DNA of 64,000 nucleotides, from the NCBI GenBank assembly GCA_030424665.1, contig JAUHWN010000004.1:679-64678 (forward strand), given 5' to 3'. The position numbers and the translations under genes are program-made. How positions within the stretch are numbered: position 1 is the stretch's first letter; each line of letters opens with the position of its first letter. Source of the stretch: Bdellovibrionia bacterium (GTDB taxonomy: Bacteria; Bdellovibrionota; Bdellovibrionia; Bdellovibrionales; JAGQZY01). The notes under the pieces were generated by a model, which had not been told where the DNA came from, made no database searches, and was given only the letters and a program-made list of their open reading frames with translations. Positions 42,815 through 59,863 of this stretch are shown in pieces.

Positions 42815-42879
42815 TTGTTCCTCCGGTATTCTATTCAGGAATCTTAACAACTACTCAAGTTATATAAAGAGAGTGCCGT

Positions 42880-42935
42880 CTTATCTTGAGAAAACAGAGT
42901 TAAATTGTGAAGTTAGCTTTTGTCTAGGCCGATAA
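42880..42935 (+). promoter_or_regulatory. Putative sigma28-type promoter plus upstream TTGAGAAAAC box (fibre gene 1)
   Basis: TTGAGAAAAC at 42886, N12, TGAAGTTA at 42908, N12, GCCGATAA at 42928. Confidence 0.6.
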
Positions 42936-42957
42936 AAGACTAGTAGGACGTAGGTTA

Positions 42958-45900
42958 ATGAATCAATACTTAAAAGCATTTCTCTCATTTACATTCATCT
43001 TTGTTTTAGCTTTAGAGCTGAATGCAGACCCATTGTATTTCAATTACAATGGTCGTATCCTGCGTCCGGATGATACTCCGCTCAACGCGGCTAGCGTCGA
43101 CTTTACTGTACAAATTATTTCAACAACCGATGGTTGTGTCCTATACGAAGAAACTCACAATCTTGACATGTCGACCTCTGCGGGAGTTTTTAACTTAAAA
43201 GTGGGCTCGGGTGCGAGAGCTGGAACGGACTACGAAGATACCTCAACACTTGATCAAGCTTTTGATAATGGATTGGGCAATATTACGGGCCTGACTTGTG
43301 ATTCGGGAACAGCTTATGATGCTGCTCCAGGTGATGCCCGCGCCATTCGTTTGACGATTAACGAAGGCACTGGTGTTATTCAATTTTCAGAAAACATCAA
43401 TATGGCCTCGGTACCCTACGCCCGCTACGCTACAAAGCTTGAAGGCATGGGGGCCGGTGACTTTTTAGCTGTGGACGGCGTAAATAACATCGACCAAACC
43501 AACTTACAAAACGTATTTGGTGGCGGTAACTACACTGAACTCATGAACTTGATTAACGGTACGAGTGCCCAATACGCAGACCCGGCTGGGGCCAACTTCA
43601 CTCCGACAGCTCCTGTGGACTTTAATAATCAAGCCTTACAAAACTTGGCTGATCCTGCGAACGCGACAGATGCAGCCACTAAAAATTATTCTGATAGCTA
43701 CATTGGTGGAGCGGCAGCCGATTCGGCAAGCCTCTCGGTTTTAGCCGGTGGGGCTGATATCGGAAAAGTTCTTACTTGGAATGGAACGACTTGGGTTGCT
43801 AATAATGTGACGGCAACAGATGCCACGAAACTTCCCTTAGCCGGCGGAACCATGACGGGTGATATCGACATGGGTGGAAATGACATTCTCAACTCCGGTT
43901 TTATAACCATGTCGGCCAATACTTACTTACACCTTGGGACCTACGCGGCTGATCCTTCGGGGTTAACGGCGGGCCATGAGGGTGTGACTTGGTATAACTC
44001 AACGAGCGATGAACTTAAGATTTGGGATGGTGCTGCCGCCCAAGTGATTGGTGGTTTTGACATTGGTACTGCGGCAGGAGATGCCATGGGTGCCGATGCG
44101 GTTCCGAACTGTTTGGCCACGGAGAAACTACAAATGAGTGCCGGTCCCGTATATACCTGGTCTTGTGTGACCGATGCCACCGGCGGTGACTTTGAATCTG
44201 ACGGTAGCGTTGCCATGACGGGTAATATTCGACTTAACGGAAATTACCTCAGTGGCGATGGCGATAGTGAAGGTGTTTTTGTTGGTAATACAGGTCGAGT
44301 GAATATCGGTGGAGCGACGACATTTGAACACCAACTAAATATCGAGAGCAACGATGTAACGCTTTACACACCGACAAGTGGCGCGGTTCGATCGCCTCTA
44401 CCAGACGGAATAGGATTAGAAATTAAAAATACTGGTAACTCAACTGGAACGGGAGCCTTTTTGAGTTTGTCTTCTGATAATAACATCGGACTTTCTTCTC
44501 AAACCTTTCTAGGGAATATATCAGATCCGAGTAACTATGATTCAACATTTGTCATAGGAGCGAGCACAGGAAACGCCAGTTATGAAGAGCGAATGCGGAT
44601 TGATGTCAATGGTAACGTGGGGATCGGTCTTGATGGTGCCAATAATCCAAGTATTTCAACAGGGGCAAAGTTGGATGTTGAAGGTCGCATAGTTTCAGGC
44701 CCTGCCGGAACGGCTACTGGAGAAACTGGCGCGATACGTTTAGAAGAGCTCGCAGCTAATGGAACAAACTATGTTTCATTACGGGCGCCTGACTCAGTAG
44801 CTACCGACGTTGTCTGGACCTTACCAGGTACCGACGGCACCAATGGACAAGTTCTTTCGACAAATGGCTCGGGAGTACTCTCGTGGCAAGACTCTGGTGT
44901 TGGCGACATATTAAATAATGGAAACTCAGGGGCTGTGGTCATCGGTTCTAATGACAATAGTTTGAGCTTAGAGGCAAATAATAATGTGGCCATTCAGATT
45001 CAAGCGAATGGTGATATCGCTTTTGATACAGATACTTTGTTTATAGATGAAGATGTCAACCGACTCGGACTGCGTAATACATCTCCTGATGAAGAAATCC
45101 ATCTCGGTGATGGAACGCAATCGGTATCGATTAAAGTTGATGCCTCAAGTGCCGGGATTCACGATGCATTGATTCTCGAGAATACTTCAGGGGGAACCAA
45201 CAGAGGACCGGCGATTCAGTACATAGATAGTGGTGGTTCCGCAGGGCGAATTTCAGTTTCCCGTGGGCCAAATAATTCAGTATCACAAATGGTTTTTGAA
45301 ACTAGATCTTCGAGCACCGTCGCGGAACGAATGCGAATTGATACCTCAGGAAACCTTGGAGTCGGAACGACGACCCCAGAAGATCGGCTTGATGTAGCGG
45401 GCTCGATTCGATCGGCAGCGCGAGGAAACACTGCCGGTGAAGGTGGTCAAATTCGTCTCGAAGAATTGGCGACTTCTCCGGACGGGGGAGCTGATGGAGT
45501 TCCTGAATTTGTTGGTTTTCGAGCGCCGGATAGTGTGGCGAGTGATTTAATTTGGACCTTACCAGGTACCGACGGCACGAATGGCCAAGTTCTTTCAACT
45601 AATGGTTCAGGGGTACTTTCGTGGGCTTCTGCCGGCACCGGTGATTTTGAGTCTGACGGTAGTGTTCCTATGGCGGGAAACATTCAATTGAACGGAAATT
45701 ACTTGAGTGGTGATGGTGGTAATGAAGGTGTTTTTGTTGATGGAGCTGGAAACGTCGGGATAGGCATCTCGTTGCCTTTGGCAAAATTTCACATCAATGG
45801 AGGCACTGGTTCGCTGTCAACAGGAGTCGCATTTGGAGATGGTGATACAGGGATTTTTGAAAATAGTGATGACTATTTAAGATATATTGGAACGGCACAT

Positions 45901-48900
45901 ATGTTTGACGGTCAGCTTCGACTTGATAATGGAACTGCTGCAGCCCCAGTTATAGTCGGTACGGAGAATTCATCAGGTTTATATTTTGAATCAGGTGGCG
46001 GTAACGGCAAAGTGATGATCTCAACAGAAGGAACTGAACGGTTGAGAGTAGATCATCTAGGAAATGTCGGTATCGGAACAAATGCTCCAACAAATATTTT
46101 AGATGTCAATCCTGCTGCTGCGCCAGCATCTGTTGCGGGTAGAGGCGTTCGAATCAAATCTCAAGACGCAAGTTCGAATAGTGCAGGTGGAAATCTTTTA
46201 GTCACATCCGGACAGGGTGAAGGGAGTGGTGGCGCTGGAGGAGATATAGAGCTTCGATCAGGAAATGCTGGTTCGGGTTCGACCGGAAATGGCGGAAAAA
46301 TGACCATACGCTCTGGTTCGGCCCAGGGAACCGGCAATGGTGGTAACATCGATCTTGTCGCAGGTAATGGAACTGGCGGTGCTGCGACCGGAAATGGTGG
46401 TAATATTAATATCACTGCCGGAAACTCTGCGAGTTCTGGTTCAGGTGGACCGGGTGACATCTCTTTAACAGCCGGTAATGCCAGTGCTGGAAGCACGGAT
46501 CAAGATGGTGGCGATATCACTTTATCCGGAGGTCTCAACAATGGTGGAAACGATGGAAATATTCTTCTCAATCCTAATTCAGGTAATGTCGGAATCGGTA
46601 CCATTTCGCCTTCGTCAAAGTTGGAAATAAATGGAGATTTGGCCATTATAGGTATAGCCGCTCCCGCAGTCTCTTCTACCGGACAAGGGAGAATTTATTT
46701 TGACTCTGCTTCAAGTAAGTTTAGGGTGTCAGAAAATGGTGGAGGGTACGTCGATCTTGTTTCTGGTGGCACCGGTGACTTTGAGTCTGATGGTTCAGTT
46801 GCAATGACAGGACGATTGACCTTGGCCGATGGTTCTCAGGCCACGCCAAGTATGGCTTTTTCTTCTGATAATCAATTGGGCTTTTACTACGGTGGTACAA
46901 ATGTAATAGGGATAACCGATGGTGGAACACAGTTTGCGACAATTAGTCCAACAAATGGTTTAGTGATTAACTCAGGGCCTATGGTTCGAACCGATGGTTA
47001 CCGTTTTCATACTGACACCGATACTGGTATAACAAATCCCGCAGACAATACACTGGGACTCGTGACTGGTGGTAATCAAATATTAACAGTCGACCCATCT
47101 TTTCAGGTTGGTATTAATAATAATAATCCGTCATTTAATCTGGATGTTACCGGTGATATGCGTGTTCTTGCTTCAGGTGGTTCAGCCACTGGGACCTACG
47201 AAGCTTATAGTAGTTCTTCTACTGATGGAGCTGTGGTTAATTTTTACCGAGCTAATGGTGCGAGTGGAGCCCCGGCTGCGGTATCGAATGGTGATTTACT
47301 TGGTGGAATCAATATCGGTGGATATGCTCCAAGTGGCTCTTTTCAGACATCTGTTCAGATTTTGTCGAGCGTAAACGGAGCGCCATCGGGGACTAACATT
47401 CCTAGTGATTTAACTTTTGCTCTCAACGATGGTTCGGGAATGCAATATCCCGTCTTGATGACTGCTGACAATTTAATGGTAACCACGGGCAAGGATCTAG
47501 TATTAGCCGATGACGATAATTCCGCCTGGACGGGCTTTAGGGCCCCATCAGTAGTTACGACTTCTGTGATTTATACTCTACCACCTGCCGACGGCTCTAA
47601 CGGACAAGTGCTTTCCACCAATGGAAGTGGTGTTCTTTCGTGGCAAGCGGGAGGGTCAGGTGATTTTCAATCGGACGGTAGTGTGGCTATGACCGGGCAA
47701 TTCGATGCCGTACTTGGCAACCAAGGTAGCCCTGGTATTAGTTTTGGCACTGACGCCAATACGGGTTTATTTAGTCCGGCCGCCGACAACGTGGCGATCA
47801 CAACGGGTGGAAACGAACGCATGCGCATCGCCTCAGATGGTAGTGTTGGAATAGGTGAGTCTTCGCCGAATTTTTCTTTAGACGTCTCTTCAGCCTCTAG
47901 TTCAAGCTTGATGAGAGTTCGAAGTACGGATGCATTTGGTTGGTCATCGATCACCTATGCTGCCAGTGACGGTGGCACTGTTGGCTGGGTCGGTTATGGT
48001 AATCCTTCTGCAACGTCTCAAGCGAATCAAATGTACATGGAAGCCAACGGAGCTCGATCCATTGGATTATACACTAACAGTACCGAGCGAATACATATCG
48101 CCTCAGATGGTAAAGTCGGTATTGGTACTAGTTCTCCCGATGGAACTCTCCACGTCGAAGGAACCGATGCAAATCGACCGGTGTTTAAGACTTCAGGGAG
48201 TTCCGGTTCGGACTACGGTATCGAAATTCAAGGTGCCAGAAACGGAACAATTGACCACAGCATTTCTTATATCAATCTTCGTAATGATCGCGGAGGCGGA
48301 GCTTACGATTTAGCCCAAATTTCTGGAGCCATGCAATCGGGTGCAACCAATCAATCTAAACTTCGCTTTTCAACAAACGATGGAAGCTCACTCAATGTAC
48401 AGATGGTTATTGATAAAGATGGTAATGTTGGACTAGGGAATGAAGCGCCAGTGGAGAAGTTAGAAGTCGAAGGACGAGTCGTATCTGGGCCGGCTGGAAC
48501 AGGAGCTGGAGAGACAGGTTCAATCCGTTTTAAAGAACTCGCCGCCGGGGGAAGTAATTACGTGGGATTGCGAGCGCCAGATGCTGTTACTTCTGATATT
48601 GTATGGACTCTACCTGCAGCTGACGGTTCCAGTGGACAAATTCTCTCAACTAATGGCTCAGGTGTACTTTCGTGGACTGCTGCGGGGTCGGGAGACTTCG
48701 AATCAGATGGCAGTGTCGCCATGACGGGACAATTCGATGCCGTACTTGGTAACCAAGGAAATCCTGGGATTAGTTTTGGGACTGACGCTAATACGGGTTT
48801 GTTTAGCCCGGCTGCTGACACTGTAGCGATCACTACGGGTGGGAGCGAAAAAATGCGTATCGCCTCGGATGGTAAAGTCGGTATTGGAGTTAATTCAACA

Positions 48901-51039
48901 GATAGCATTTTAAGGGTCGAAGATACCACCCACCCTGTTTTTAGAAGAGAACGCACGACGAATGGTACGTCCACTGCAGCAGCTTTACGTTTGGAGCGAA
49001 CCTATGAAGGTGGTGTCGGTGGTGTCGGTATGGGGGTTCACCAAGACTTCTATGTCGAAACGGCAACCGAAGGTGTGATGGAACCGATTGCACAAATCGG
49101 AGCGCGTACCACCGTGCCAACAGCAGGTGATATTCATTCGGACCTTTTCTTTAGGACCTTTTTTGAGGGCGGCTCAAACGAAGCCATGATTATTAAAAGT
49201 ACTGGGGCCGTCGGTGTTGGTGTCGATCCGACTGAGTCCTTTCATATGAAGTTTGATACTAACTCCAGTGTTTCTAATAAAGCTGAGAACAAAGGAACGG
49301 GCGGAAACTCTGTAGCCCAGTTTTGGGCAGAGGGGGGAGCGACGGCCAATGATTGGATTAAGATGGGTGTTGGTAACTCTGGATCCGCGTGGCCCAACAA
49401 AGCCTACATTGAAGCAGGAAATACGGTTGATGATTTAACCATTAGTGCACCCGATGTCATTTTTGATACGACAGGCGCAGCAACTATGACCTTAAATGGT
49501 TCTGGTAATTTACAAGTGCACACCGAAAATGAAATTCGCTTCGAAGATAATACTGGAGGTGAATATGTTGGCTTTAAAGCCCCGGCCACAGTAACTGGAT
49601 CACAAACCTATACCTTGCCACCTGCGGATGGTTCCAGTGGCCAGGTGCTCACCACCAATGGTTCGGGGGTACTAACGTGGTCTTCTGCCGGTGGTGGAAG
49701 TGGTGACCTCATGTCAGATGGGTCTGTTGTAATGACCGATCAATTTTTTGGAGTTGTTGGAAATGCCGGCGCGCCTTCTTATACATTTGACGGTGACCCT
49801 GACACGGGTGTCTTTAAGGCTGCGGATGATGTTGTGGCAGTTAGTACAGGCGGAGCTGAAGCGATTCGCATAGATAGCGGTGGTAATCTCGGTGTTGGAA
49901 CAACGTCACCAGATGCAATCCTTCATGTGGAACCTTCAGCTGCTGCAACCAGTACTAAAGGTAAAGGGATTAAGCTATTCGCACAGGATTCGACGGGTCC
50001 TACTTCGAATACCGGTGGAAGTATACTTCTAGAGGTTGGTGACGGCGCTGGTGGGTTTGGTTCTGGGAATTTTTCGGCTGATGTTAAAAACGGGATGTTC
50101 TTTGTTTCTAAAGGGAGCAATACTAATTACACACCTGGTTCTGCCCCTGATCATCATCTCTACTTAGACAATAGTTGGTTCTTAGACTCGAATTCAGTTT
50201 TTATTACCCATAATGTGCGGAACACAGCCAATGATCAGTATTTCTTCACAGGAGCCTTCTCGAATTCTGGAGCGGGTAACTACTCACCCTCATACGCTTG
50301 GGTTCAGCAAACTGGAGCCTCAACCTATGCCGAGCGCATGCGTATCGATGGTTCAGGGCAACTTGGAATTGGAACGACCTCACCTGAATCCCTCGTCCAC
50401 ATTGATGGTTCAGGTGCGGGAAAAGGTCTTTGTGTCACTAGTGATGATACCTGTGGATCAGTTCCAGCGGGAGGAGAAATTTCGGCTGAAACGACTCTTA
50501 ATACTGGTGCCGATTATGCGGAATACTTTGCGGCTGAAGTAAATGATCTCGAACCTGGAGATTTGGTGGGTCTGAACCCTAAAAACGGATTAGTACGAGC
50601 CTACCAAAAAGGCGATGCTCTTTTGGGGGTTATTTCTACGAACCCAGGTGTGATCGGTAATTCTGAACTTCGCGGAAAAGAAAACGTGGCCCTTGTTGGT
50701 TTAGTCGGGCAACTTCCTGTGAAGTCGGATCAGGTTTATTATTACAACGGCTTTGCTTACGCTAATGACGGATCGCCTGTCGGCTTCGCACTTGCAGACG
50801 GCAGTATCTACATTAATATTTCTTCAGCGGACATCATACAAAACACTGAGATTGCCAAACTTAAAAATCGCCTTGATGAAAAAGACAAACAACTCCGTGG
50901 AATCGCCAGCGTAGTCGGCGAAAAAGAAGAGCGTATTAAAGCTCTTGAGAACAAAAACTCAGAGCTTCAGTCTAAATATGAGTCGCTAGAAGATAAACTA
51001 GAACGCCTTGAAAAAATCGTCGATCAACTAACTCAGTAA
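42958..51039 (+). CDS. Giant mosaic trimeric fibre adhesin (Bdellovibrio MAT-like) 1 with Peptidase_G2-like C-terminal chaperone
   Basis: Signal peptide; YNGRILRPD..PL...GCVLYEE N-domain; repeated GDFESDGSVAMTG, GQVLSTNGSGVLSW and GNVGIG modules; ADYAEYF...LGVIS...VGLVGQLPV; terminal coiled coil. Confidence 0.85.
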   Translation: MNQYLKAFLSFTFIFVLALELNADPLYFNYNGRILRPDDTPLNAASVDFTVQIISTTDGCVLYEETHNLDMSTSAGVFNLKVGSGARAGTDYEDTSTLDQAFDNGLGNITGLTCDSGTAYDAAPGDARAIRLTINEGTGVIQFSENINMASVPYARYATKLEGMGAGDFLAVDGVNNIDQTNLQNVFGGGNYTELMNLINGTSAQYADPAGANFTPTAPVDFNNQALQNLADPANATDAATKNYSDSYIGGAAADSASLSVLAGGADIGKVLTWNGTTWVANNVTATDATKLPLAGGTMTGDIDMGGNDILNSGFITMSANTYLHLGTYAADPSGLTAGHEGVTWYNSTSDELKIWDGAAAQVIGGFDIGTAAGDAMGADAVPNCLATEKLQMSAGPVYTWSCVTDATGGDFESDGSVAMTGNIRLNGNYLSGDGDSEGVFVGNTGRVNIGGATTFEHQLNIESNDVTLYTPTSGAVRSPLPDGIGLEIKNTGNSTGTGAFLSLSSDNNIGLSSQTFLGNISDPSNYDSTFVIGASTGNASYEERMRIDVNGNVGIGLDGANNPSISTGAKLDVEGRIVSGPAGTATGETGAIRLEELAANGTNYVSLRAPDSVATDVVWTLPGTDGTNGQVLSTNGSGVLSWQDSGVGDILNNGNSGAVVIGSNDNSLSLEANNNVAIQIQANGDIAFDTDTLFIDEDVNRLGLRNTSPDEEIHLGDGTQSVSIKVDASSAGIHDALILENTSGGTNRGPAIQYIDSGGSAGRISVSRGPNNSVSQMVFETRSSSTVAERMRIDTSGNLGVGTTTPEDRLDVAGSIRSAARGNTAGEGGQIRLEELATSPDGGADGVPEFVGFRAPDSVASDLIWTLPGTDGTNGQVLSTNGSGVLSWASAGTGDFESDGSVPMAGNIQLNGNYLSGDGGNEGVFVDGAGNVGIGISLPLAKFHINGGTGSLSTGVAFGDGDTGIFENSDDYLRYIGTAHMFDGQLRLDNGTAAAPVIVGTENSSGLYFESGGGNGKVMISTEGTERLRVDHLGNVGIGTNAPTNILDVNPAAAPASVAGRGVRIKSQDASSNSAGGNLLVTSGQGEGSGGAGGDIELRSGNAGSGSTGNGGKMTIRSGSAQGTGNGGNIDLVAGNGTGGAATGNGGNINITAGNSASSGSGGPGDISLTAGNASAGSTDQDGGDITLSGGLNNGGNDGNILLNPNSGNVGIGTISPSSKLEINGDLAIIGIAAPAVSSTGQGRIYFDSASSKFRVSENGGGYVDLVSGGTGDFESDGSVAMTGRLTLADGSQATPSMAFSSDNQLGFYYGGTNVIGITDGGTQFATISPTNGLVINSGPMVRTDGYRFHTDTDTGITNPADNTLGLVTGGNQILTVDPSFQVGINNNNPSFNLDVTGDMRVLASGGSATGTYEAYSSSSTDGAVVNFYRANGASGAPAAVSNGDLLGGINIGGYAPSGSFQTSVQILSSVNGAPSGTNIPSDLTFALNDGSGMQYPVLMTADNLMVTTGKDLVLADDDNSAWTGFRAPSVVTTSVIYTLPPADGSNGQVLSTNGSGVLSWQAGGSGDFQSDGSVAMTGQFDAVLGNQGSPGISFGTDANTGLFSPAADNVAITTGGNERMRIASDGSVGIGESSPNFSLDVSSASSSSLMRVRSTDAFGWSSITYAASDGGTVGWVGYGNPSATSQANQMYMEANGARSIGLYTNSTERIHIASDGKVGIGTSSPDGTLHVEGTDANRPVFKTSGSSGSDYGIEIQGARNGTIDHSISYINLRNDRGGGAYDLAQISGAMQSGATNQSKLRFSTNDGSSLNVQMVIDKDGNVGLGNEAPVEKLEVEGRVVSGPAGTGAGETGSIRFKELAAGGSNYVGLRAPDAVTSDIVWTLPAADGSSGQILSTNGSGVLSWTAAGSGDFESDGSVAMTGQFDAVLGNQGNPGISFGTDANTGLFSPAADTVAITTGGSEKMRIASDGKVGIGVNSTDSILRVEDTTHPVFRRERTTNGTSTAAALRLERTYEGGVGGVGMGVHQDFYVETATEGVMEPIAQIGARTTVPTAGDIHSDLFFRTFFEGGSNEAMIIKSTGAVGVGVDPTESFHMKFDTNSSVSNKAENKGTGGNSVAQFWAEGGATANDWIKMGVGNSGSAWPNKAYIEAGNTVDDLTISAPDVIFDTTGAATMTLNGSGNLQVHTENEIRFEDNTGGEYVGFKAPATVTGSQTYTLPPADGSSGQVLTTNGSGVLTWSSAGGGSGDLMSDGSVVMTDQFFGVVGNAGAPSYTFDGDPDTGVFKAADDVVAVSTGGAEAIRIDSGGNLGVGTTSPDAILHVEPSAAATSTKGKGIKLFAQDSTGPTSNTGGSILLEVGDGAGGFGSGNFSADVKNGMFFVSKGSNTNYTPGSAPDHHLYLDNSWFLDSNSVFITHNVRNTANDQYFFTGAFSNSGAGNYSPSYAWVQQTGASTYAERMRIDGSGQLGIGTTSPESLVHIDGSGAGKGLCVTSDDTCGSVPAGGEISAETTLNTGADYAEYFAAEVNDLEPGDLVGLNPKNGLVRAYQKGDALLGVISTNPGVIGNSELRGKENVALVGLVGQLPVKSDQVYYYNGFAYANDGSPVGFALADGSIYINISSADIIQNTEIAKLKNRLDEKDKQLRGIASVVGEKEERIKALENKNSELQSKYESLEDKLERLEKIVDQLTQ

Positions 51040-51170
51040 TATTCTTTGTCACTGTAGACCTTTATATCCCTACTTACACCTAAGATTTTTGAAGATTTCA
51101 AATCCTCAGATAGCGAATTCTCTTTTGTCTCTTTTGAAGGCGATTTGTCGCAGAAAATTGCTGTTTTACA

Positions 51171-51220
51171 TTGAGAAAACCGTGCCATTGGCTAGAGGTC
51201 TAAACGTCCTGAACCGATAA
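51171..51220 (+). promoter_or_regulatory. Putative sigma28-type promoter plus upstream TTGAGAAAAC box (fibre gene 2)
   Basis: TTGAGAAAAC at 51171, N12, TAGAGGTC at 51193, N12, ACCGATAA at 51213; same geometry as fibre gene 1. Confidence 0.55.
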
Positions 51221-51238
51221 GACTATGTTGGTCGTAGG

Positions 51239-54200
51239 ATGATGAGGATAAATATCAAAGGGCTTATTTTATTAATCTTTTCTAGTTTGCTGGCCTTGCC
51301 TGCCCAGGCAGACCCATTGTATTTCAATTACAATGGTCGTATCCTGCGTCCGGATGATACTCCGCTCAACGCGGCTAGCGTCGACTTTACCGTACAAATT
51401 ATTTCAACAACCGATGGTTGTGTTCTATACGAAGAAAATCACAATCTCGACATGTCGACCTCTGCCGGAGTTTTCAACTTAAAAGTGGGCTCGGGTGCGA
51501 GAGCTGGATCGGACTACGAAGATACTTCGACACTCGATCAAGCCTTTGATAATGGGTTAGGAAATGTTACGGGCCTCACGTGTGATTCGGGAACAGCTTA
51601 TGATGCTGCTCCCGGTGATGCCCGCGCCATTCGTTTGACGATTAACGAAGGCACTGGCGTTATTCAGTTTTCAGAAAATATTAACATGGCTTCGGTACCC
51701 TACGCCCGTTACGCTACGAAGCTTGAAGGTATGGGGGCCGGTGACTTCCTTGCGGTCGATGGTGTTAACAATATCGATCAAACCAACTTACAAAACGTAT
51801 TTGGTGGCGGTAACTACACTGAACTCATGAATTTAATTAATGGTACGAGTGCCCAATACGCAGACCCGGCTGGGGCCAACTTCACTCCGACAGCTCCTGT
51901 GGACTTTAATAACCAAGCCTTACAAAACTTGGCCGAACCGACTGACGCGACAGACGCTGCCACAAAAAATTACTCTGATACCTACATCGGGGGAGCGGCA
52001 GCGGATTCGGCGAGCCTTTCGGTATTAGCCGGTGGGGCTGATATCGGAAAAGTTCTTACTTGGAATGGAACCACTTGGGTTGCCAATGCTCCAACAACCA
52101 CAGATGCCACAAAACTCCCTTTAGCCGGCGGAACTATGACGGGCGATATCGACATGGGTGGAAATGATATTCTAAATACTGGTTTTATAACCATGTCGGC
52201 CAATACTTACTTACACCTTGGGACCTATGCTGGTGACCCTGGAGCAAGCTTCGGTCCCGTTCATGAAGGTGTCACGTGGTATGACACTATAGCTAATCAG
52301 CTTAAGATTTGGGATGGTGCTGCCGCCCAAGTGATTGGTGGTTTTGACATTGGTACTGCGGCAGGAGATGCCATGGGTGCCGATGCGGTTCCGAACTGTT
52401 TGGCCACGGAGAAACTGCAAATGAGTGCCGGTCCCGTTTATGCCTGGTCTTGTGTGACCGATGCCACCGGCGGTGACTTCGAGTCTGACGGAAGTGTTGC
52501 GATGACTGGTAATATTCGACTTAACGGAAATTACCTCAGTGGTGATGGCGATAGTGAAGGTGTTTTTGTCGACGCCGCTGGAAATGTTGGGGTTGGTTCT
52601 TCATCACCACAGGCGAATTTACATATTCGTAATAATGATACGTCTCATGCTCTCAGAATAAGTCGCGCCAGTGATGCTGCCGATTCCGCTCATCTAGGTT
52701 TTGTGCCAACTGTGACGTCGAGTTTAACACCAATTTGGAATGTGGGACTTGTTGAGGCGAATTCCGATAATTTTCACATTTCGACCTGGAATGGTGTGAG
52801 TGCAAATTCAAGGGTCGTTCTAACTCCTTCGGGTGCTTTAGGAATAGGAGACTTGGCGCCGAGCCAAAGGCTTGAAGTATCAGGTCGAATTGTTTCAGGT
52901 CCCGCAGGAACTGCCTCGGGTGAGGCCGGTACGATTCGCTTCGAGGAACTCGCTGCTAATGGCACAAACTATGTGTCTTTGAGAGCTCCTGATTCTTTGG
53001 CAGGCGATGTTGTTTGGACCTTACCAGGTACCGACGGCACGAATGGACAAGTCTTACAGACGAACGGCAGTGGTGTTTTGAGTTGGACAACCCCAGCTAC
53101 CGGTACGGGTGACTTTGAATCTGACGGTTCTGTAGCGATGACCGGTCAGTTCCAAGCTAACTCTGGCTCTGTCAGTGCGCCTGGGATAACTTTCGACGGC
53201 GATGAGGATACAGGGTTTTACAGACCTCTAAGTGGAGTTGTTAGTTACTCCAGCAACGGAAGTGAAGTATTTGGTTTTGGCATTGGTACTATTGACATTG
53301 CATTTATTGGAACTGCTAATCTAGAAGCTCAGGATAATTTTGAAATTGAAATTGATGGTAATAATTCCGGGAGTGGGAATTTCGATATTACACATGATTC
53401 TACAAATCTCTTAAGAGTTACTGATTTAGGCAACGTTGGAATTGGTCAAACAGTTCCCTCTGAAAAGCTCGATGTTGAAGGTTCCATTGTATCTGGCCCG
53501 AAAGGCACAGCTTCAGGCGAAGGCGGAGCCATTATTTTTGAAGAACTCGCAGCTAATGGAACAAACTATGTGTCTTTGAGAGCTCCTGATTCTTTGGCAG
53601 GCGATGTTGTTTGGACACTTCCTGCAAGTGACGGGACATCTGGTCAAGTTCTATCAACTAATGGTACAGGTCAGCTGGGCTGGTCGAGCCTTGGTGGTGG
53701 TGGTGATTTTGAATCTGACGGTTCAGTTGCAATGACAGGGCAAATTGATGCCATACTTGGTAACCAAGGAAACCCTGGAATAAGTTTTGGAACTGACGCT
53801 GATACGGGGTTCTTTAGCCCAGGTGCCGACAATGTGGCGATCACTACCGGTGGTACCGAGCGTGTTCGGGTTACGAGCGTTGGCCGAGTGGGTATTGGAG
53901 TTGATCCGAGTTCGATTCTTCACATTGAAGGGACGAATCCCGATTTGCAGATCAATGGTAACGTAGATGACACGAACATTAGCATCAGTATGATCGGGTA
54001 TAACACTGGAGCTTATAATCACGGGTTTGAGATGACTCACAATGATGACTCTGATAACTCCTTCCAGCTCAATCGAATTCAAGCGGGTACACCAAAAACG
54101 GTACTTCATGCCGAACGGGATACGGCTCAACTTGGTGTATTTAATACGAGCCCCATTGGAGCCGTACATATCACAGATGAGAATAATAGAGATTTTTATT

Positions 54201-57200
54201 TCGATGGTCACAACGATACTTTCAATCAAGGCCCAGACTTAATTTTACGTCGAAGTCGTGGAGATACGAGTGCGTTAACACCTGTCATGAACACGGATAA
54301 AGTAGGTGCGCTTATGTTCCATGCCTACGATACCACGAGTACTTACAGAGGTGCTGCCGGTATTCAGGCGACGGCGACGGCCGATACTGGAGTAAACCGC
54401 GCACCAACTAAATTAGAATTTATCACTCGCGAAGTTGGATCGACCACAACTAAAACACAAATGGAACTCGGTGACGACGGTAATCTTAATATGCTCGATC
54501 ACAATCGAGTTCGATTTTACGATACTGGGACTAGCGAGTATGTCTCTCTCGTTGCTCCATCTGATGTGACCGCTGACACCAATCTCACATTACCAAATGG
54601 TCCGGGTACCAATGGTCAAGTTTTAACAACCGACGGTACAGGAGTCATGTCTTGGACAACTCCGGCTTCAGGTGGAGACTTTGAATCTGATGGTAGTGTG
54701 GCAATGACAGGCCAACTCGATGCGACTCTTGGTAACCAAGGTAACCCCGCAATTAGCTTCGGCACTGATGCCAATACTGGTTTTTTTAGTCCCGGTGCAG
54801 ACACTATTGCGTTTACAACCGGTGGATCTGAACAGATGCGTTTGACTTCATCGGGAGAACTTGGAATTGGAGGAACGCCGACCACCGGGAGCCTCGTGCA
54901 TGCTCAGGGGAGTAGTGCCAATGCTCTCAGTATGACCATTGAAAACCAGGGGACTGGTGCAAATTCTTATGCTTCTGTTTGGGTTCAAGCTGAGGGCGGC
55001 GGCGGAAATAATTATGTCGAATTGGGGACTGGTGGAACGGGCTCTGGTTCGGCCCAACAGGCCTACCTAGCAACGGGTAGTGGCGTTACCAGTTTAAGTC
55101 TTGGTGCGAACTTACATATTTTTGGCAACTTGAGTGGAACTCCACACCTTACCATCGAGCCATCCGGTAATCTTCACATGAGTAGCGAAAACGAAATTCG
55201 TTTCGAAGATGGCGATGGTGGTGAATACGTCGGTTTTAAAGCACCCAATATTGTGACGGGGTCACAAACCTGGACACTTCCGCCATCCGACGGTACCAGC
55301 GGCCAAGTTCTTTCGACCGATGGTAATGGAGTATTATCTTGGCAGTCCACGAGTGCAGGTGATTTTTTAGCAAATGGTTCAGTGTCAATGACGGGGAATA
55401 TTCGATTAAACGGAAACTACCTCAGTAACGATGGTGGAAGTGAAGGTGTCTTTGTCGATACTGATGGCAATGTTGCAATCGGCAATGGGGCCCCCGATTC
55501 AAAACTTCATGTCTTCAGCGGTCACACGGTAAATGGTGTAGGGGATTTAATTTTAGAAAATAACAACTGGTCTTACGATATGGGAGTTCGGTTCCGTCAA
55601 GCCGACAATGATAAATGGCATTTTGGCTTTAGCGGTAATGACACTGAAGACCTGCATATTAGAAATAATTCTGGCGGTTACTTTCAGACTTGGGATTACT
55701 CCACTGGCAATGTCGGTATAGGGACTTCCGCTCCTGAAGAAGAGCTCCATGTAGAAGGAACCGATACGACGGTTGCGGTTAAAGTGACAAATACCGATTC
55801 TTCCGTGGCGAGATATCCAGGTTTCATTGTCGATCATCATAAGGGTGCAACGATTCTTGGGGCCCCAACGTTTGCTGGTCGAACCAGTCGGGGAACAAAA
55901 TCTTTACCGACAGAAACCCAAACTGGTGATGTTCTAGCAAGTTTTGTGGGGCTTGGCGCTTATAATACTACTCCGAACTGGCATACGGGTGGTGGAATGG
56001 AAGTGATTGCGATTGAAAACTTTAATGCCACGGATCGTGGAACGGGTTTGCGTTTTAGTGTGACTCCTAGTGGTACTACTTCATCTGAAAATGCGGTTCT
56101 AATTACTGAAGCAGGAGATATAAATTTACTCACAGAAAATGAAATACGTATGCAAGATGCAGCCGGTGGTCAGTATGTAGGATTCAAAGCACCTACCACG
56201 GTCACATCAAGTCAAACCTATACTCTACCAGCGGCTGATGGTACCAGCGGTCAAGTTCTTTCGACCAATGGTTCAGGTGTTCTTTCGTGGACGGCTTCTA
56301 GCGGTGGGAGCGGTGATATTAATAATGGCGGTAACTCTTTCGGTGCTACGATGACGATTGGTACGAACGATGCCAATGAATTAGAATTTGAAAGTAATAA
56401 TTCGACAACGATGATTATGGACTCTGTATTTTTATACGGCGGAGGTGGAACTGGTGCGCCTTCGATTAGCATGGGTGCACCTGGGGGTGCGGCCCAGCCT
56501 TCGTTTGCCTTTTTTGGTGATGATGACACGGGTATGTATCGATCGGCCGCCGATGAAATTTCTTTTGCTACTGGCGCGACCGAAAGAATGACTCTAGATA
56601 GTACCGGACGGCTCGGTATTGGTGTCGATCCAACAGAAGAGCTTCACGTTAGAAAAGATCAAAATGCAACGACAACTTTTAGAGTTGATAACTTTACTGC
56701 GGGAGCCAATGCTGATTCGCAAATGATTTTAGGTACGAGCTCAGCGACCCTTTCAATTACTCAAATTAGCTCGAGTAGCACTGGAACTGGAGCCAGCTCT
56801 CCAAACTCTTCATTGATTGATGGCTTTGGTACTAATGGATTAGCTCTCGCGGGAAGTAATGGGGTTTCTGGTTCTATTAGTTTTTTCACCGATGGAATTG
56901 CTGAAGCAAATAGACGTATGACCATTGATAATACGGGACATACAAATATTTTAGCCGAAAAAGAACTTCGCTTACAAGATGCATCGGGCGGTGAGTACGT
57001 CGGTTTCAAAGCACCAGCTACAGTAACGGGGACTCAGACCTACACGTTGCCGGCGGCCGATGGTACCAGCGGACAAGTTCTTTCGACCAATGGTTCGGGT
57101 GTTCTTTCGTGGACAGCGGCCGGCGGGGGAAGTGGTGATTTTCTCGCAGATGGTTCGATTCCAATGACAGGTCAATTCACAGCTGATTTCGGTACAGCGG

Positions 57201-58609
57201 CCGCCCCAGGGATCACTTTTGATGGAGATGAAGATTTAGGGATTTATCGAATAGCTGCCGATCAAATGGCTTTTACTGCTGCAGGTAGTATGAAGTTTGA
57301 AATGAATCAAAACCGCTTTGAAGGTAAAGATTTTGGCTCGGCCGCCATGCGCTCTGCCGCCGGTGTCGAGGCCAACCCTGCATTCACATTTGTAAATGAC
57401 CCCGATACAGGTCTATTCACACCGGCTTCTAATGAAATTGCATTTTCTAACTCTGGGTCAGAATCACTTCGAATTGATGCGGACGGTGACGTTGGAATTG
57501 GAACATCTGCGCCAGATTCTATCCTTCACGTTGAACCTTCGGCAGCGCCTGCTAGTACGAAAGGTAAAGGAATTAAACTTTACGCTCAAGATTCGACGGG
57601 TCCTGCTTCAAATACGGGTGGAAGTATACTTCTAGAGGTTGGTGACGGTGCTGGTGGATTTGGTTCGGGAAATTTTTCTGCGGATGTTAAAAGTGGTAAT
57701 TTCTTTGTTACTAAAGGAAAAAACTCTGCTTACACACCAGGATCGGCACCTGATCATCACCTCTTTTTAGAAAATAGTTGGTTTGTTGATTCGAACTCTG
57801 TTTTTATTACTCATAACGTTCGAAATACAGCCAATGATCAGTATTTCTTTACTGGAGCCTTCTCGAACTCTGGAGCAGGCACTTACTCTCCTTCCTACGC
57901 TTGGGTTCAGCAAACGGGAGCATCATCCTATGCTGAGCGAATGCGAATCGATGGGTCGGGACAATTGGGAATTGGGACCACTTCCCCAGAGTCTTTAGTT
58001 CATATCGATGGCTCAGGTGCCGGTAAAGGACTTTGTGTCACCAGTGATGATACCTGTGGGTCTGTTCCCGCTGGAGGAGAAATTTCGGCTGAAACGACAC
58101 TAAATACGGGTGCCGATTATGCGGAATATTTTGCCGCAGAAAGCGATAATTTTCAGCCAGGGCAGCTAGTTGGTATAAATCCTGAAAATGGTCTTGCTCG
58201 ATCTTATCAATCTGGAGATGCCCTCCTTGGTATAGTCTCTACCAATCCTGGAGTCATTGGTAACTCAGAATTACGAGGGAAAGAAAACGTAGTACTCGTT
58301 GGTCTTGTAGGGCAACTACCGGTTCAATCCGATCAAGTTTACTATCATAATGGTTTTGCCTTTGCAAATGACGGTGAACCTCTTGGTTTCGCCTTAGCTA
58401 ACGGAAGTGTGTACATCAATATTTCTTCAACCGATGTTCAGCAGAATTCAGAAATCGCAAAACTCAAAGACGAGTTGAGCAGAAAAGATCAAGAGATCAA
58501 GAATTTAAAAGAAAAGAACGAAAGCCTAGAAAGCCGCATGGATCGACTTGAAGCCATGATGGAAGCGCTTTCGGCTTCTTCGAGTCGCGCGCCAGCTTCG
58601 GTTGAGTAG
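51239..58609 (+). CDS. Giant mosaic trimeric fibre adhesin (MAT-like) 2, paralog of the upstream gene
   Basis: Near-identical N-terminal ~430 aa and highly similar C-terminal ~330 aa to 42958-51039; different order of central modules; same ADYAEYF chaperone. Confidence 0.85.
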   Translation: MMRINIKGLILLIFSSLLALPAQADPLYFNYNGRILRPDDTPLNAASVDFTVQIISTTDGCVLYEENHNLDMSTSAGVFNLKVGSGARAGSDYEDTSTLDQAFDNGLGNVTGLTCDSGTAYDAAPGDARAIRLTINEGTGVIQFSENINMASVPYARYATKLEGMGAGDFLAVDGVNNIDQTNLQNVFGGGNYTELMNLINGTSAQYADPAGANFTPTAPVDFNNQALQNLAEPTDATDAATKNYSDTYIGGAAADSASLSVLAGGADIGKVLTWNGTTWVANAPTTTDATKLPLAGGTMTGDIDMGGNDILNTGFITMSANTYLHLGTYAGDPGASFGPVHEGVTWYDTIANQLKIWDGAAAQVIGGFDIGTAAGDAMGADAVPNCLATEKLQMSAGPVYAWSCVTDATGGDFESDGSVAMTGNIRLNGNYLSGDGDSEGVFVDAAGNVGVGSSSPQANLHIRNNDTSHALRISRASDAADSAHLGFVPTVTSSLTPIWNVGLVEANSDNFHISTWNGVSANSRVVLTPSGALGIGDLAPSQRLEVSGRIVSGPAGTASGEAGTIRFEELAANGTNYVSLRAPDSLAGDVVWTLPGTDGTNGQVLQTNGSGVLSWTTPATGTGDFESDGSVAMTGQFQANSGSVSAPGITFDGDEDTGFYRPLSGVVSYSSNGSEVFGFGIGTIDIAFIGTANLEAQDNFEIEIDGNNSGSGNFDITHDSTNLLRVTDLGNVGIGQTVPSEKLDVEGSIVSGPKGTASGEGGAIIFEELAANGTNYVSLRAPDSLAGDVVWTLPASDGTSGQVLSTNGTGQLGWSSLGGGGDFESDGSVAMTGQIDAILGNQGNPGISFGTDADTGFFSPGADNVAITTGGTERVRVTSVGRVGIGVDPSSILHIEGTNPDLQINGNVDDTNISISMIGYNTGAYNHGFEMTHNDDSDNSFQLNRIQAGTPKTVLHAERDTAQLGVFNTSPIGAVHITDENNRDFYFDGHNDTFNQGPDLILRRSRGDTSALTPVMNTDKVGALMFHAYDTTSTYRGAAGIQATATADTGVNRAPTKLEFITREVGSTTTKTQMELGDDGNLNMLDHNRVRFYDTGTSEYVSLVAPSDVTADTNLTLPNGPGTNGQVLTTDGTGVMSWTTPASGGDFESDGSVAMTGQLDATLGNQGNPAISFGTDANTGFFSPGADTIAFTTGGSEQMRLTSSGELGIGGTPTTGSLVHAQGSSANALSMTIENQGTGANSYASVWVQAEGGGGNNYVELGTGGTGSGSAQQAYLATGSGVTSLSLGANLHIFGNLSGTPHLTIEPSGNLHMSSENEIRFEDGDGGEYVGFKAPNIVTGSQTWTLPPSDGTSGQVLSTDGNGVLSWQSTSAGDFLANGSVSMTGNIRLNGNYLSNDGGSEGVFVDTDGNVAIGNGAPDSKLHVFSGHTVNGVGDLILENNNWSYDMGVRFRQADNDKWHFGFSGNDTEDLHIRNNSGGYFQTWDYSTGNVGIGTSAPEEELHVEGTDTTVAVKVTNTDSSVARYPGFIVDHHKGATILGAPTFAGRTSRGTKSLPTETQTGDVLASFVGLGAYNTTPNWHTGGGMEVIAIENFNATDRGTGLRFSVTPSGTTSSENAVLITEAGDINLLTENEIRMQDAAGGQYVGFKAPTTVTSSQTYTLPAADGTSGQVLSTNGSGVLSWTASSGGSGDINNGGNSFGATMTIGTNDANELEFESNNSTTMIMDSVFLYGGGGTGAPSISMGAPGGAAQPSFAFFGDDDTGMYRSAADEISFATGATERMTLDSTGRLGIGVDPTEELHVRKDQNATTTFRVDNFTAGANADSQMILGTSSATLSITQISSSSTGTGASSPNSSLIDGFGTNGLALAGSNGVSGSISFFTDGIAEANRRMTIDNTGHTNILAEKELRLQDASGGEYVGFKAPATVTGTQTYTLPAADGTSGQVLSTNGSGVLSWTAAGGGSGDFLADGSIPMTGQFTADFGTAAAPGITFDGDEDLGIYRIAADQMAFTAAGSMKFEMNQNRFEGKDFGSAAMRSAAGVEANPAFTFVNDPDTGLFTPASNEIAFSNSGSESLRIDADGDVGIGTSAPDSILHVEPSAAPASTKGKGIKLYAQDSTGPASNTGGSILLEVGDGAGGFGSGNFSADVKSGNFFVTKGKNSAYTPGSAPDHHLFLENSWFVDSNSVFITHNVRNTANDQYFFTGAFSNSGAGTYSPSYAWVQQTGASSYAERMRIDGSGQLGIGTTSPESLVHIDGSGAGKGLCVTSDDTCGSVPAGGEISAETTLNTGADYAEYFAAESDNFQPGQLVGINPENGLARSYQSGDALLGIVSTNPGVIGNSELRGKENVVLVGLVGQLPVQSDQVYYHNGFAFANDGEPLGFALANGSVYINISSTDVQQNSEIAKLKDELSRKDQEIKNLKEKNESLESRMDRLEAMMEALSASSSRAPASVE

Positions 58610-59863
58610 CTAAAATCGATAGCCCACACGAAATTCAGCATTTGAATAAAATAGATAGATGTCACCCTTTAGGTTTTGCGACAAGGATGTATTGTTTTGA
58701 CTAAAGGTGTACCAGTGAAAAACGCCGTACCAGAAAGCACCGATACTCCACCTTTTTCCTAAATACTTCTCTAATCCGATAGAGCCTTCTATGCCGTAGG
58801 CCGAATCGAGATTAAAAACATTTTCGGAATAGAGTGGAAACTGCAGTCTAAAAAAGATTTCGTATAGAAAGGTACGGGCCTGTTCAAGCTCAAAGTGCAT
58901 CCCCAGGGCTCCAAAAAGAATTTGGTTGTTATTGACCTCAACAACGCTAGGAGTTTCGCTGAGAATATTGATAAAAGGTACAGAATGGTACTGAATGCCG
59001 GCCTGGAAACCCATTCTCAGAGTATCATTCGGACGTTTGTAGCGAAACTTTTGTGGAAAGTAAACTCCGGTCGCCGAAGCCATAATCCAGTTAAAAGTTT
59101 TATCCCGAACTTGAGCTTGCTCTGAAGAGGCTGTTTCGCCGGGCGTGAGTTTTGCCGTTAAAAGAACTTGATACTCGTTTGAGAGCTGCTTCCAGTAATC
59201 GATATAAAAAGCCCCAAGATTAATACTCTGAAACGTCGTACTCGAAGGATAATTGGAGTCTTGTTTAAAAAGAACAAAGTTAAGTCCCAAGCCTAAAGAG
59301 AGTTGACTCGTTTTTAAAAAAGGAGACTTGCCCGCTAAGGTAGGAGTGTTGGCAATAATTTTTTCAGGACTGATTTCGAGAATCAGTTGATAAGAAGATT
59401 TTTGCGAACCCTTTCTTACTTTGATCGGAATTTGATAGGCTCCCTTGGGTAGAATAACTTGAAGTTGAAATTCGCCCTTAGAATTCGCTTGTGTCTGTTG
59501 GATGGGCATAAAACTTTGTTTGACCTTAACTTCTTTAACTGAGGCATCGAGAATTCGAATAATATCGGGAGAGTACTCTACAGTCGAGTATGGGAGCGTC
59601 TTTCCGGTGATTACTACATCAACAAATTTCTTGTTAGTACCCAGGCCAAGAAAAGGTTGGTAAAACTCGAGTTTTATATTTCCAGATGTGATTTGCGCCG
59701 ACAGACTCGATTTATCTTTTGAGTCTTGTGTCTTTTTAGGAGTTTCTTTAAGAGTCTCGACACTCTCTTCATTTTCTGTTTTAGCATCATTATTAGTCTG
59801 AGCCGAAACGTTCACTACAAGAAATAGACTCAGTAGAGTAATGATTTTGAGAGCGTGAATCAT
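58610..59863 (-). CDS. Hypothetical outer-membrane protein (N-terminal beta domain plus barrel-like C-terminus)
   Basis: Signal peptide, amphipathic strands and terminal VGYRF; ATGA overlap with the phosphatase C-half. Confidence 0.7.
   Translation of the reverse strand: MIHALKIITLLSLFLVVNVSAQTNNDAKTENEESVETLKETPKKTQDSKDKSSLSAQITSGNIKLEFYQPFLGLGTNKKFVDVVITGKTLPYSTVEYSPDIIRILDASVKEVKVKQSFMPIQQTQANSKGEFQLQVILPKGAYQIPIKVRKGSQKSSYQLILEISPEKIIANTPTLAGKSPFLKTSQLSLGLGLNFVLFKQDSNYPSSTTFQSINLGAFYIDYWKQLSNEYQVLLTAKLTPGETASSEQAQVRDKTFNWIMASATGVYFPQKFRYKRPNDTLRMGFQAGIQYHSVPFINILSETPSVVEVNNNQILFGALGMHFELEQARTFLYEIFFRLQFPLYSENVFNLDSAYGIEGSIGLEKYLGKRWSIGAFWYGVFHWYTFSQNNTSLSQNLKGDIYLFYSNAEFRVGYRF

Follow-up and report, generated by a model that had tools for sequence, protein, structure and literature searches.

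In this study we analysed a 64,000-nucleotide (nt) stretch of a contig (JAUHWN010000004.1, hereafter the window) of an uncultured, Bdellovibrio-like predator of the Bdellovibrionia, in which two adjacent genes, A and B, encode what we read as giant fibres of the mosaic adhesive trimer (MAT) family. According to this reading, to which we give a probability of about 80%, both fibres end in a chaperone of the Peptidase_G2 (G2) type and exchange cassettes along the shaft at conserved junctions, and the two genes stand in tandem and are independently started. That is, the anchor, the distal unit and the chaperone appear to be constant at this locus, and whole shaft modules appear to be swapped at standard junctions between co-occurring strains. 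The coordinates of all features are listed in Table 1.

By sequence comparison, both proteins are members of the MAT family. The NCBIfam model NF053851 (Bdello_MAT_N), whose label is "mosaic adhesive trimer family chimeric fiber protein", matched A at amino acids (aa) 13-173 with 129.3 bits and B at aa 14-174 with 132.7 bits, the cutoff being 60. A phmmer search of the PDB sequences found the MAT fibres Bd2133 (8OND), Bd1334 (8OML), Bd3182 (8OJN) and Bd2439 (8OL4), and the E-value of B against 8OND was 3.5e-12. The sole other match was that of B to the flagellar protein 3C12, which was weak (E=0.005). The alignments to the MAT fibres anchor on the capping-loop motif xERMRIDxxGNVGIGTxxPxxxL; the published consensus of the MAT beta-helix capping loop is V-G-G/N-x-x-x-P-x-x-x-L (Caulton et al. 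2024, PMC10769870). An earlier first-pass annotation of this DNA had named Bdellovibrio-type MAT fibres, and the NCBIfam match together with the PDB matches to Bd2133, Bd1334 and Bd3182 agrees with it. The two open reading frames (ORFs) that it reported are also real, tandem and intact, with exactly the coordinates and lengths claimed. A database search with B returned 94 proteins of 1,350-4,283 aa, the named ones from Bdellovibrionales. Most of the 94 end in the Pfam S74 domain, and a local profile detected a MAT_N-type N-terminus in 84. Giant size is common in the MAT family and is not new in itself.

A and B are paralogues that are alike at their ends and unlike in their shafts. BLAST aligned the N-terminal blocks over 1,265 nt with 90.6% DNA identity (91% at the protein level), and the C-terminal block (A aa 2313-2623) over 932 nt with 78% DNA identity, as the first-pass annotation had described for the ends. 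In BLASTP, the seventh module (M7) was 82% identical between A and B, and the chaperone plus coiled coil 68%. The DNA of the middles gave only short matches, which were located at the joints. Both N-termini look by eye like typical Sec leaders, ending LNA/D in A and AQA/D in B (the slash marks a predicted cleavage site here and below), and the identity between A and B starts exactly at the predicted signal-peptide cleavage site. The signal peptides themselves are mutually unrelated, and so is the DNA upstream of them; the sequence of the A-B spacer is unrelated to the DNA upstream of A. Each protein has six Cys residues, all of which occupy equivalent positions in the conserved ends: the N-terminal block has two pairs, and CVTSDDTC, just ahead of the C-terminal domain, has the third. 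The N-terminal block of A also includes a phage-fibre-like stalk that carries KLPLAGGTMTGDIDM.

We then considered the joints that punctuate the shafts. The motif GD(F/L)x(S/A)(D/N)GSxxM (the GDF motif) occurs six times in A, at 410, 895, 1273, 1568, 1912 and 2249, and six times in B, at 412, 624, 822, 1146, 1374 and 1966. One extra degenerate copy is present in each protein (GDILNNGNS at A649 and GDINNGGNS at B1692). The second motif, of the GQVLSTNGSGVLSW type, has five copies in A and six in B. When the proteins were shuffled (2,000 times each), the expected count was 0.0005 or less for either motif, and neither motif was found in any other frame of the 64-kb window. The numbers of both motifs given by the first-pass annotation were therefore exact. 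Their treatment as two separate joints was not borne out: every GQVL...W motif is followed, 5-7 residues downstream, by a GDF motif, which indicates that the two are halves of one composite junction. The junction reads ...YVGFxAP..WTLP..DG..GQVLSTNGSGVLSW, then a linker of 5-7 aa made of Gly, Ser, Ala and Thr, and then GDFxSDGSVxMTG.

A profile built from 40 joints matched one sequence of solved structure, the fibre gp28 of cyanophage P-SCSP1u (8I4M), at residues 710-766 with E=1.7e-6. The part of gp28 that matches the joint is absent from the cryo-electron microscopy map. From this similarity the joint appears to be a phage-fibre element, of which the fold is not visible in the gp28 map. In an AlphaFold2 monomer model of B 1085-1400, the joint was the best-predicted part, with a predicted local distance difference test score (pLDDT) of 70-81 and four short strands. 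As a separate observation, the M3/M4 boundary of A (aa 1240-1272, window about 46675-46773) has an alternative joint, GRIYFDSASSKFRVSENGGGYVDLVSGGT/GDF (here the slash marks the module boundary), in which the GQVL...W half is replaced; the relatives P0008 and P0009 share it.

Cutting at the GDF motifs left seven modules in each protein, preceded by an N-terminal block of about 410 aa and followed by a C-terminal domain. The shaft modules of A open with GDFxSDGSVxMTG, and all except M3 close with YVGFxAP..WTLP..DG..GQVLSTNGSGVLSW. In the motif map, MAT capping loops (xRMRIDxxGNVGIGTxxPxxxL) numbered at least 11 in A (M1-M7) and at least 9 in B. All-against-all BLASTP showed that modules M1-M6 are 25-54% identical to any other module. 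The first-pass annotation had called the middle "re-shuffled". Our comparison upheld its statement that the shafts differ, but elsewhere in B no module of A is closely matched; the best pair is M1 with M1, at 54%. The shafts thus seem to be different sets of diverged paralogous beta-helix modules, and not identical modules in another order. Tandem Repeats Finder detected no DNA-level tandem arrays in A or B, which indicates that the modules are old, diverged repeats. No lectin, binding or enzyme domain was found in any module with Pfam, NCBIfam and PHROGs. Within M3 of A, aa 1075-1200 (window about 46180-46560) form a run of glycine-rich short coils of the GGxIxLxxGN... type, for example GNGGNIDLVAGNGTGG and GNGGNINITAGNSASS. 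This run has no equivalent in the other modules of A or B and is probably a different, narrower beta-solenoid segment.

The larger MAT subgroup is defined by a C-terminal Peptidase_S74 chaperone with the catalytic motif SDxxxK (Caulton et al. 2024, PMC10769870). Neither A nor B matched PF13884 (Peptidase_S74), and the SDxxxK motif was likewise absent from both. Instead, A matched PF11962 (Peptidase_G2, "IMC autoproteolytic cleavage domain") with 27.8 bits against a cutoff of 25. The sequence GADYAEYF was invariant in 13 of 13 aligned C-termini, including that of B. A profile of these 13 C-termini matched the C-terminal fragment of phi29 gp12 (3GQH, E=1.3e-12), the chaperone domain of the tailspike Dpo31 (28NB, 1.2e-12) and full-length gp12 (6QZ9, 9e-12; 3SUC, 7.5e-11). 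The D of GADYAEYF aligned with residue 1 of the 3GQH fragment (DFAEYFES), the start of which we take to be the residue directly after the gp12 cleavage site. The AlphaFold2 model of A 2249-2693 reached a pLDDT of 90 or more over aa 2518-2623 and then formed one long helix. When this model was compared by Foldseek, the MAT fibres 8OML, 8OND and 8ONC came on top (E 4e-5 to 7e-4). The same search gave moderate support for the gp12 relationship: 3GQH was found with probability 1.00, a target TM (template-modelling) score of 0.48 and E=3e-3, and 3SUC with probability 1.00 and E=2e-3.

These matches point to a C-terminus of the phi29 gp12 type in A and B, that is, a Peptidase_G2 intramolecular chaperone. 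By alignment with gp12, it is predicted to cleave itself off at A2518/D2519 in A and at A2292/D2293 in B. The last 175 aa or so of A and about 164 aa of B would then lie outside the mature fibre, and with the chaperone removed M7 is predicted to be the mature tip. The "common tip" of the first-pass annotation stands as far as M7 is concerned; the rest of the conserved C-terminus is the G2 chaperone with its coiled coil, a part that self-cleavage is predicted to remove.

An exhaustive profile search found the G2 cassette in 6,311 cluster representatives at E of 1e-3 or less. Among the best 150 of these 6,311 matches, five further proteins of 1,033-1,895 aa scored above the Bdello_MAT_N cutoff, and P0009 (2,353 aa) likewise bears the cassette. 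A unit of P0095 matches M7 with 60% identity over 221 aa, yet this protein ends in S74 (30.9 bits, SDRRIK), and in P0096-P0100 the G2 cassette stands behind unrelated modules. Judging from these arrangements, the G2 cassette itself appears to be mobile.

In order to compare strains, we used the GTDB representative metagenome-assembled genome Bdellovibrionia 7_bin.39 from the same biofloc study (locus L001, hereafter the sister strain). Its flanking genes are syntenic with the window at 91% nt identity, and it has a single fibre gene, C. The upstream region and signal peptide of C are of the A type, and its N-terminal block is 95.6% identical to that of A and 92.4% to that of B. C retains modules of the B type, namely M3 (89.5% aa identity), M5 (92%), M6 (88%), M7 (96%) and the C-terminus (83%). 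The bodies of M1, M2 and M4 of C are unrelated to anything in the window (less than 57% identity, near the joints only). DNA homology between C and B falls into three blocks: C aa 1-381 correspond to B 72-453, C 873-1244 to B 790-1161, and C 1523 to the end to B 1346 to the end. All the breakpoints lie inside a composite junction or within about 15-40 aa of one. Cassettes have thus been replaced at joints between the strains. The first-pass annotation had proposed a strain comparison of module order, and the order is not invariant; the sister strain has a different string. One other locus, L003, was dropped as a synteny comparison: it has a solitary 2,209-aa MAT in a different context, with an N-terminus 45% identical.

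The single-gene arrangement of the sister strain was repeated on one 48.7-kb contig of 30x depth in run X8, and further samples of the biofloc study contain this strain as well. X8, X6 and X10 gave essentially zero coverage of the A shaft (44585-50137) at 80% identity or more. Thus, the sister strain is truly without an A-type gene. The sister fibre gene carries a 2-nt deletion at codon 30 (window 43045-43046; L001 about 10088), where AATTACAATGG becomes AAT--CAATGG. The deletion breaks the frame of C right after the signal peptide and is fixed, with 29.8 of 29.8 depth in X8, and in X6 too. The allele is probably inactive, a recent pseudogene, despite the low dN/dS of its modules given below. 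An inactive allele fits the known redundancy of MAT fibres (Caulton et al. 2024, PMC10769870).

As for other material, X10, an aquatic metagenome of a different study, gave fragmentary contigs on 41500-60000 with 80-95% identity and further junction combinations, for example 45737 joined to 57501. These combinations hint at a third allele of the locus at a depth of 2-8x, which is too low to interpret. A scan of metagenome contigs with the N-terminal 431 aa found no further alleles; its distant matches came only via the ubiquitous fibre motif LPLAGGTMTG.

Then the synonymous divergence (dS) and the ratio of nonsynonymous to synonymous divergence (dN/dS) were estimated by the Nei-Gojobori method. 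In the modules shared by B and C, dS was 0.76-0.85 and dN/dS was 0.03-0.09, with the lowest value, 0.029, in M7. The retained modules are under strong purifying selection. For flanking genes, dS between the window and the sister strain was 0.29 and 0.47. That is, silent sites of the fibre DNA have diverged about twice as far as those of the surroundings, which suggests that the fibre genes have exchanged DNA with more distant lineages. Between the N-terminal blocks of A and B, dS was 0.42, compared with 0.72 and 0.83 to C, and in M7 the A/B value was 1.12, far above that of the N-terminal block. The informative sites in the N-terminal block of C alternate between A-like and B-like. The low A/B value in this block and the alternating sites of C fit repeated gene conversion of the anchor region.

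We propose the following working of these fibres, in which the trimeric state, Sec export, surface display, cleavage and any ligand binding by tip or shaft are inferred from resemblance to the MAT family and to phi29 gp12. The Sec signal peptide would export each protein, and the conserved MAT N-terminal domain and stalk would hold the fibre on the cell surface. The trimer would fold from the C-terminus to the N-terminus, nucleated by the G2 chaperone and the coiled coil, and the chaperone would then cut itself off at GA/DYAEYF and expose M7 as the distal tip common to both fibres. The six further modules between the ends, of 200-380 aa, would each form one to three triple-beta-helix units with MAT capping loops. 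The junctions may act as standard register-preserving couplers, such that any module may follow any other, and may double as recombination sites for the exchange of module bodies. Exchange bounded by junctions would make shaft composition and length differ among paralogues and strains while the anchor, the tip and the folding device are kept. Bd3182 has a 922-aa precursor that is cleaved at S782 and was modelled at 550 Å (Caulton et al. 2024, PMC10769870); scaled from it, the length of A and B fibres would be about 160-180 nm.

Several points weigh against this reading. Exact DNA matches between joints have a median of only 10 nt, with a few of 26-56 nt (maximum 56), compared with up to 116 nt between the N-terminal blocks; with such short matches, simple RecA-type exchange is not assured at every joint, and as substrates for homologous recombination the joints are plausible, though less than ideal. 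BLAST resolves the breakpoints no finer than the conserved joints, into any of which alignments extend. The comparison is with just one strain, which has a fixed frameshift, and its allele may be decaying and not adaptive. When the B_M4 body and the M4 body of the sister strain were searched against GTDB representative genomes for a donor of the swapped cassettes, only self matches or matches of 33% were obtained. On the chaperone side, B scored 21.5 bits against PF11962, under the cutoff of 25. All AlphaFold2 models are of single chains, and the trimer state is our inference. The model of the central module with both joints (B 1085-1400) had a pLDDT of 64 and a predicted template-modelling score of 0.35, and Foldseek against the PDB found nothing significant for it (best 8OND, E=0.07). 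This model is uninformative because a single chain is inadequate for an intertwined trimer. For expression, no RNA runs are listed, and no expression data were found.

Since the N-terminal block and the joints are repeated, the A/B tandem or the single-gene sister allele might be an assembly artefact. Both genomes are metagenome-derived, and the nearly identical 1.26-kb N-terminal blocks (90.6%) with their long exact matches could favour such an error. We regard this as very unlikely and rejected it. The whole of 41500-60000 (18.5 kb, with the A-B spacer) is represented at 99% identity or more, and at roughly even depth, in Logan contigs of two independent biofloc-metagenome samples. The sister arrangement, in turn, recurs in another run on the 48.7-kb contig described above, where almost no A-shaft reads were present. 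Another reading takes A and B for tail fibres, either of a prophage or of a phage-like particle, considering that PHROGs tail-fibre families match (E 4e-64 for A), that the joint matches a cyanophage fibre and that the chaperone is of the phi29 gp12 type. However, both proteins have a putative Sec signal peptide, as read from the sequence, together with the MAT_N domain that is specific to Bdellovibrio; no gene for phage structure, replication or lysis was detected beside A and B; and synteny with ordinary chromosomal genes is kept in the sister strain. The prophage reading was rejected on account of these chromosomal-type neighbours, and we consider it extremely improbable.

What the shaft does is a more evenly divided question. 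It may be purely structural, the modules being interchangeable spacers that alter length, flexibility or antigenicity (the last, for example, as an escape from phage or grazers recognising the fibre), with all recognition residing in M7. This is quite possible, if short of probable. The modules are all homologous beta-helix units without added domains, the family builds lengths from 1,350 to 4,283 aa out of the same module types, conservation is highest in M7, and the frameshifted allele is tolerated in the sister strain, hence the fibre is dispensable. On the other hand, dN/dS is low across the entire retained modules, and bodies were replaced by very different ones and not by simple gain or loss of copies. 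Alternatively, each shaft module might be an independent ligand-binding bead of a multivalent adhesin, with prey specificity along the shaft and the tip secondary. We think this unlikely, although the shaft units are of the same capped beta-helix kind as the tip of Bd3182, for which a lateral cleft was proposed to bind O-antigen (Caulton et al. 2024, PMC10769870), the paralogues hold the tip constant and differ in the shaft, and the bodies turn over between strains while the retained ones are conserved more tightly than a mere spacer predicts. Opposed to it are the failure of Pfam, NCBIfam and PHROGs to find a binding, lectin or enzyme domain, the uninformative model of the central module, and the conservation of M7, which has the lowest dN/dS and a 60% copy in another fibre, as fits a tip that is the main functional unit. 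Published MAT work also places specificity and diversity at the tips (Caulton et al. 2024, PMC10769870). The further idea of a combinatorial shaft, in which ligand-binding bodies are exchanged among fibre genes and strains, recognition is multivalent, and the N-terminus, M7 and G2 are a constant chassis, is in our opinion distinctly unlikely. Between the pure spacer reading and the multivalent reading, the remaining probability falls to mixed cases, for example those in which only some modules bind.

The G2-terminated fibres with exchangeable shaft cassettes that we propose can be compared with known systems. Like the S74 MAT Bd3182 (PDB 8ONC/8OJN; PMC10769870), A and B have a putative signal peptide followed by the MAT N-terminal domain and a shaft of capped, presumably triple beta-helix units, and then a C-terminal intramolecular chaperone expected to cleave itself and expose the last beta-helix unit. 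In contrast to Bd3182, the chaperone is of the Peptidase_G2 type with GADYAEYF and not of the S74 type with SDxxxK, and the proteins are about 2.5-3 times longer (Bd3182 has 922 aa, and typical MATs about 1,000 aa). The NS74 MATs Bd2133 and Bd1334 (8OND, 8OML) are also a paralogue pair with a shared N-terminal region (theirs being a 75% identical fibre region) and mosaic evolution, and their beta-helix units align to the modules of A and B. These two, however, vary at the tip, with unrelated beta-sandwich tips and no chaperone, whereas A and B share the tip and vary the shaft; the GQVL...W/GDF composite junctions have not been reported for them.

Exchange at conserved linkers is also how modular receptor-binding proteins and tail fibres of phages evolve, mostly in the distal receptor-binding domain. 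A and B resemble them in that short conserved junctions flank exchangeable domains, and gp28 of P-SCSP1u bears the same joint motif, but in A and B the exchange is internal and the distal unit is kept. With the phi29 pre-neck appendage gp12 and the Klebsiella phage depolymerase Dpo31 (28NB) they share an auto-chaperone that opens with D(Y/F)AEYF after the cleavage site, which in A and B is a predicted one, behind a beta-helix that in A and B would be trimeric. Unlike in these virion appendages, the protein that carries the domain in A and B is, as read from the sequence, cellular and Sec-exported with a MAT anchor; a coiled coil of 52-63 aa comes after the domain, and no enzymatic beta-helix domain was detected upstream.

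Compared with published MATs, the new elements are the G2 chaperone class, the location of variation in the shaft of adjacent paralogues, and cassettes delimited by joints. Neither the MAT paper (Caulton et al. 2024, PMC10769870) nor its supplements mention G2-type MATs; we found no other paper on them, and a literature search found none on shaft cassette exchange in MATs. MAT fibres are the current best candidates for the recognition of many kinds of prey by Bdellovibrio-like predators, and this locus would define a MAT subclass in which a phi29-type G2 chaperone takes the place of S74 in folding. If the shaft modules bind ligands, this would change where prey specificity is to be sought, and predator fibres could be engineered at natural splice points. 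As register-preserving couplers for long trimeric fibres, the joints would be useful even if the modules bind nothing. The finding concerns specialists in predatory bacteria and fibre engineering, and in principle it is unsurprising.

Table 1. Features of the A/B fibre locus, in window positions; aa numbers refer to the respective precursor.
Feature	Position	Strand	Description	Basis
Gene A	42958..51039	+	2,693 aa, giant MAT-family fibre precursor	ORF and translation, Bdello_MAT_N, PDB matches
A signal peptide	42958..43026	+	aa 1-23, ...ELNA/DPLYF, putative cleavage site	sequence reading; A/B identity starts directly after
A N-terminal block	43024..44282	+	aa 23-442: MAT_N aa 13-173, stalk, two Cys pairs, first GDF joint	
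A shaft M1-M6	44185..49701	+	aa 410-648, 649-894, 895-1272, 1273-1567, 1568-1911, 1912-2248	
A M7	49702..50511	+	aa 2249-2518, distal beta-helix unit, predicted mature tip; ends CVTSDDTC loop, ...TTLNTGA	
A Peptidase_G2-type chaperone	50512..50847	+	aa 2519-2630; predicted autocleavage A2518/D2519 (GA/DYAEYF)	
A coiled coil	50848..51036	+	aa 2631-2693	AlphaFold2 single long helix, pLDDT ~90; weak GCN4-like matches
A-B spacer	51040..51238	no strand	199 nt, intergenic	covered by contigs of independent runs
Gene B	51239..58609	+	2,456 aa, giant MAT-family fibre precursor, tandem paralogue of A	ORF and translation
B signal peptide	51239..51310	+	aa 1-24, ...PAQA/DPLYF, putative cleavage site	sequence reading and alignment
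B N-terminal block	51308..52569	+	aa 24-444	BLAST, Bdello_MAT_N
B shaft M1-M6	52472..57133	+	aa 412-623, 624-821, 822-1145, 1146-1373, 1374-1691, 1692-1965	
B_M4 body	54721..55282	+	562 nt; sister strain has 844 unrelated nt instead, breakpoints in flanking joints	X8 contig, BLAST
B M7	57134..58114	+	aa 1966-2292, distal beta-helix unit, predicted mature tip	
B Peptidase_G2-type chaperone	58115..58450	+	aa 2293-2404; predicted cleavage A2292/D2293	
B coiled coil	58451..58606	+	aa 2405-2456, 21 aa shorter than that of A	coiled-coil Pfam matches; alignment gap

With regard to the transcription of the pair, promoter-like sites were fewer than in shuffled sequences, and operon structure is not firmly readable from the scan; the promoter and terminator scan listed no terminator-like hairpin in the A-B spacer. 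In an exact look-up against public assemblies, protein B gave no record.

The neighbours of A and B are a TonB-dependent receptor, an S8 protease, a metzincin-like giant protein, outer-membrane-like proteins and a HAMP/SpoIIE protein. Just upstream of A (42449-42814, + strand) lies a 121-aa ORF with a lipoprotein-type leader, FSGLAC/SE, which is identical at 119 of 121 aa in the sister strain, the surroundings being 88.7% identical at the nt level. It had no Pfam or NCBIfam match and might be a partner of the fibres. Comparison of window 42275-42300 with L001 9026-9466 showed that the sister strain has about 275 extra nt upstream of the fibre gene. These nt hold most of a 146-aa ORF that resembles a membrane protein and has no counterpart in the window.

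The pair is flanked by two signal-peptide proteins (40981-42018 and 58610-59863, both on the - strand) that have no Pfam match and are conserved in the sister strain. Their C-terminal halves resemble outer-membrane beta-barrels, and one of them ends in ...RVGYRF. It is pure speculation that they are candidate surface anchors of the MAT fibres. At 59860-61654 (-), a HAMP ORF of 491 aa and a SpoIIE-phosphatase ORF of 169 aa overlap by about 190 nt, and the sister strain has one ORF of 598 aa; this reflects either a frameshift in the strain of the window or a different gene structure.

Farther from the fibre genes, a 620-aa protein (32133-33995, +) consists of a fervidolysin-type prodomain, an S8 subtilase and a C-terminal c-di-GMP-binding PilZ domain; it is unusual for a protease of the secreted type to be joined to a cytoplasmic signalling domain. 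The only recognisable part of a 1,795-aa ORF (35603-40990, -) is Met-zincin (DUF4953) at aa 1129-1206. This ORF is of equal length in the sister strain, with a dN/dS of 0.033.

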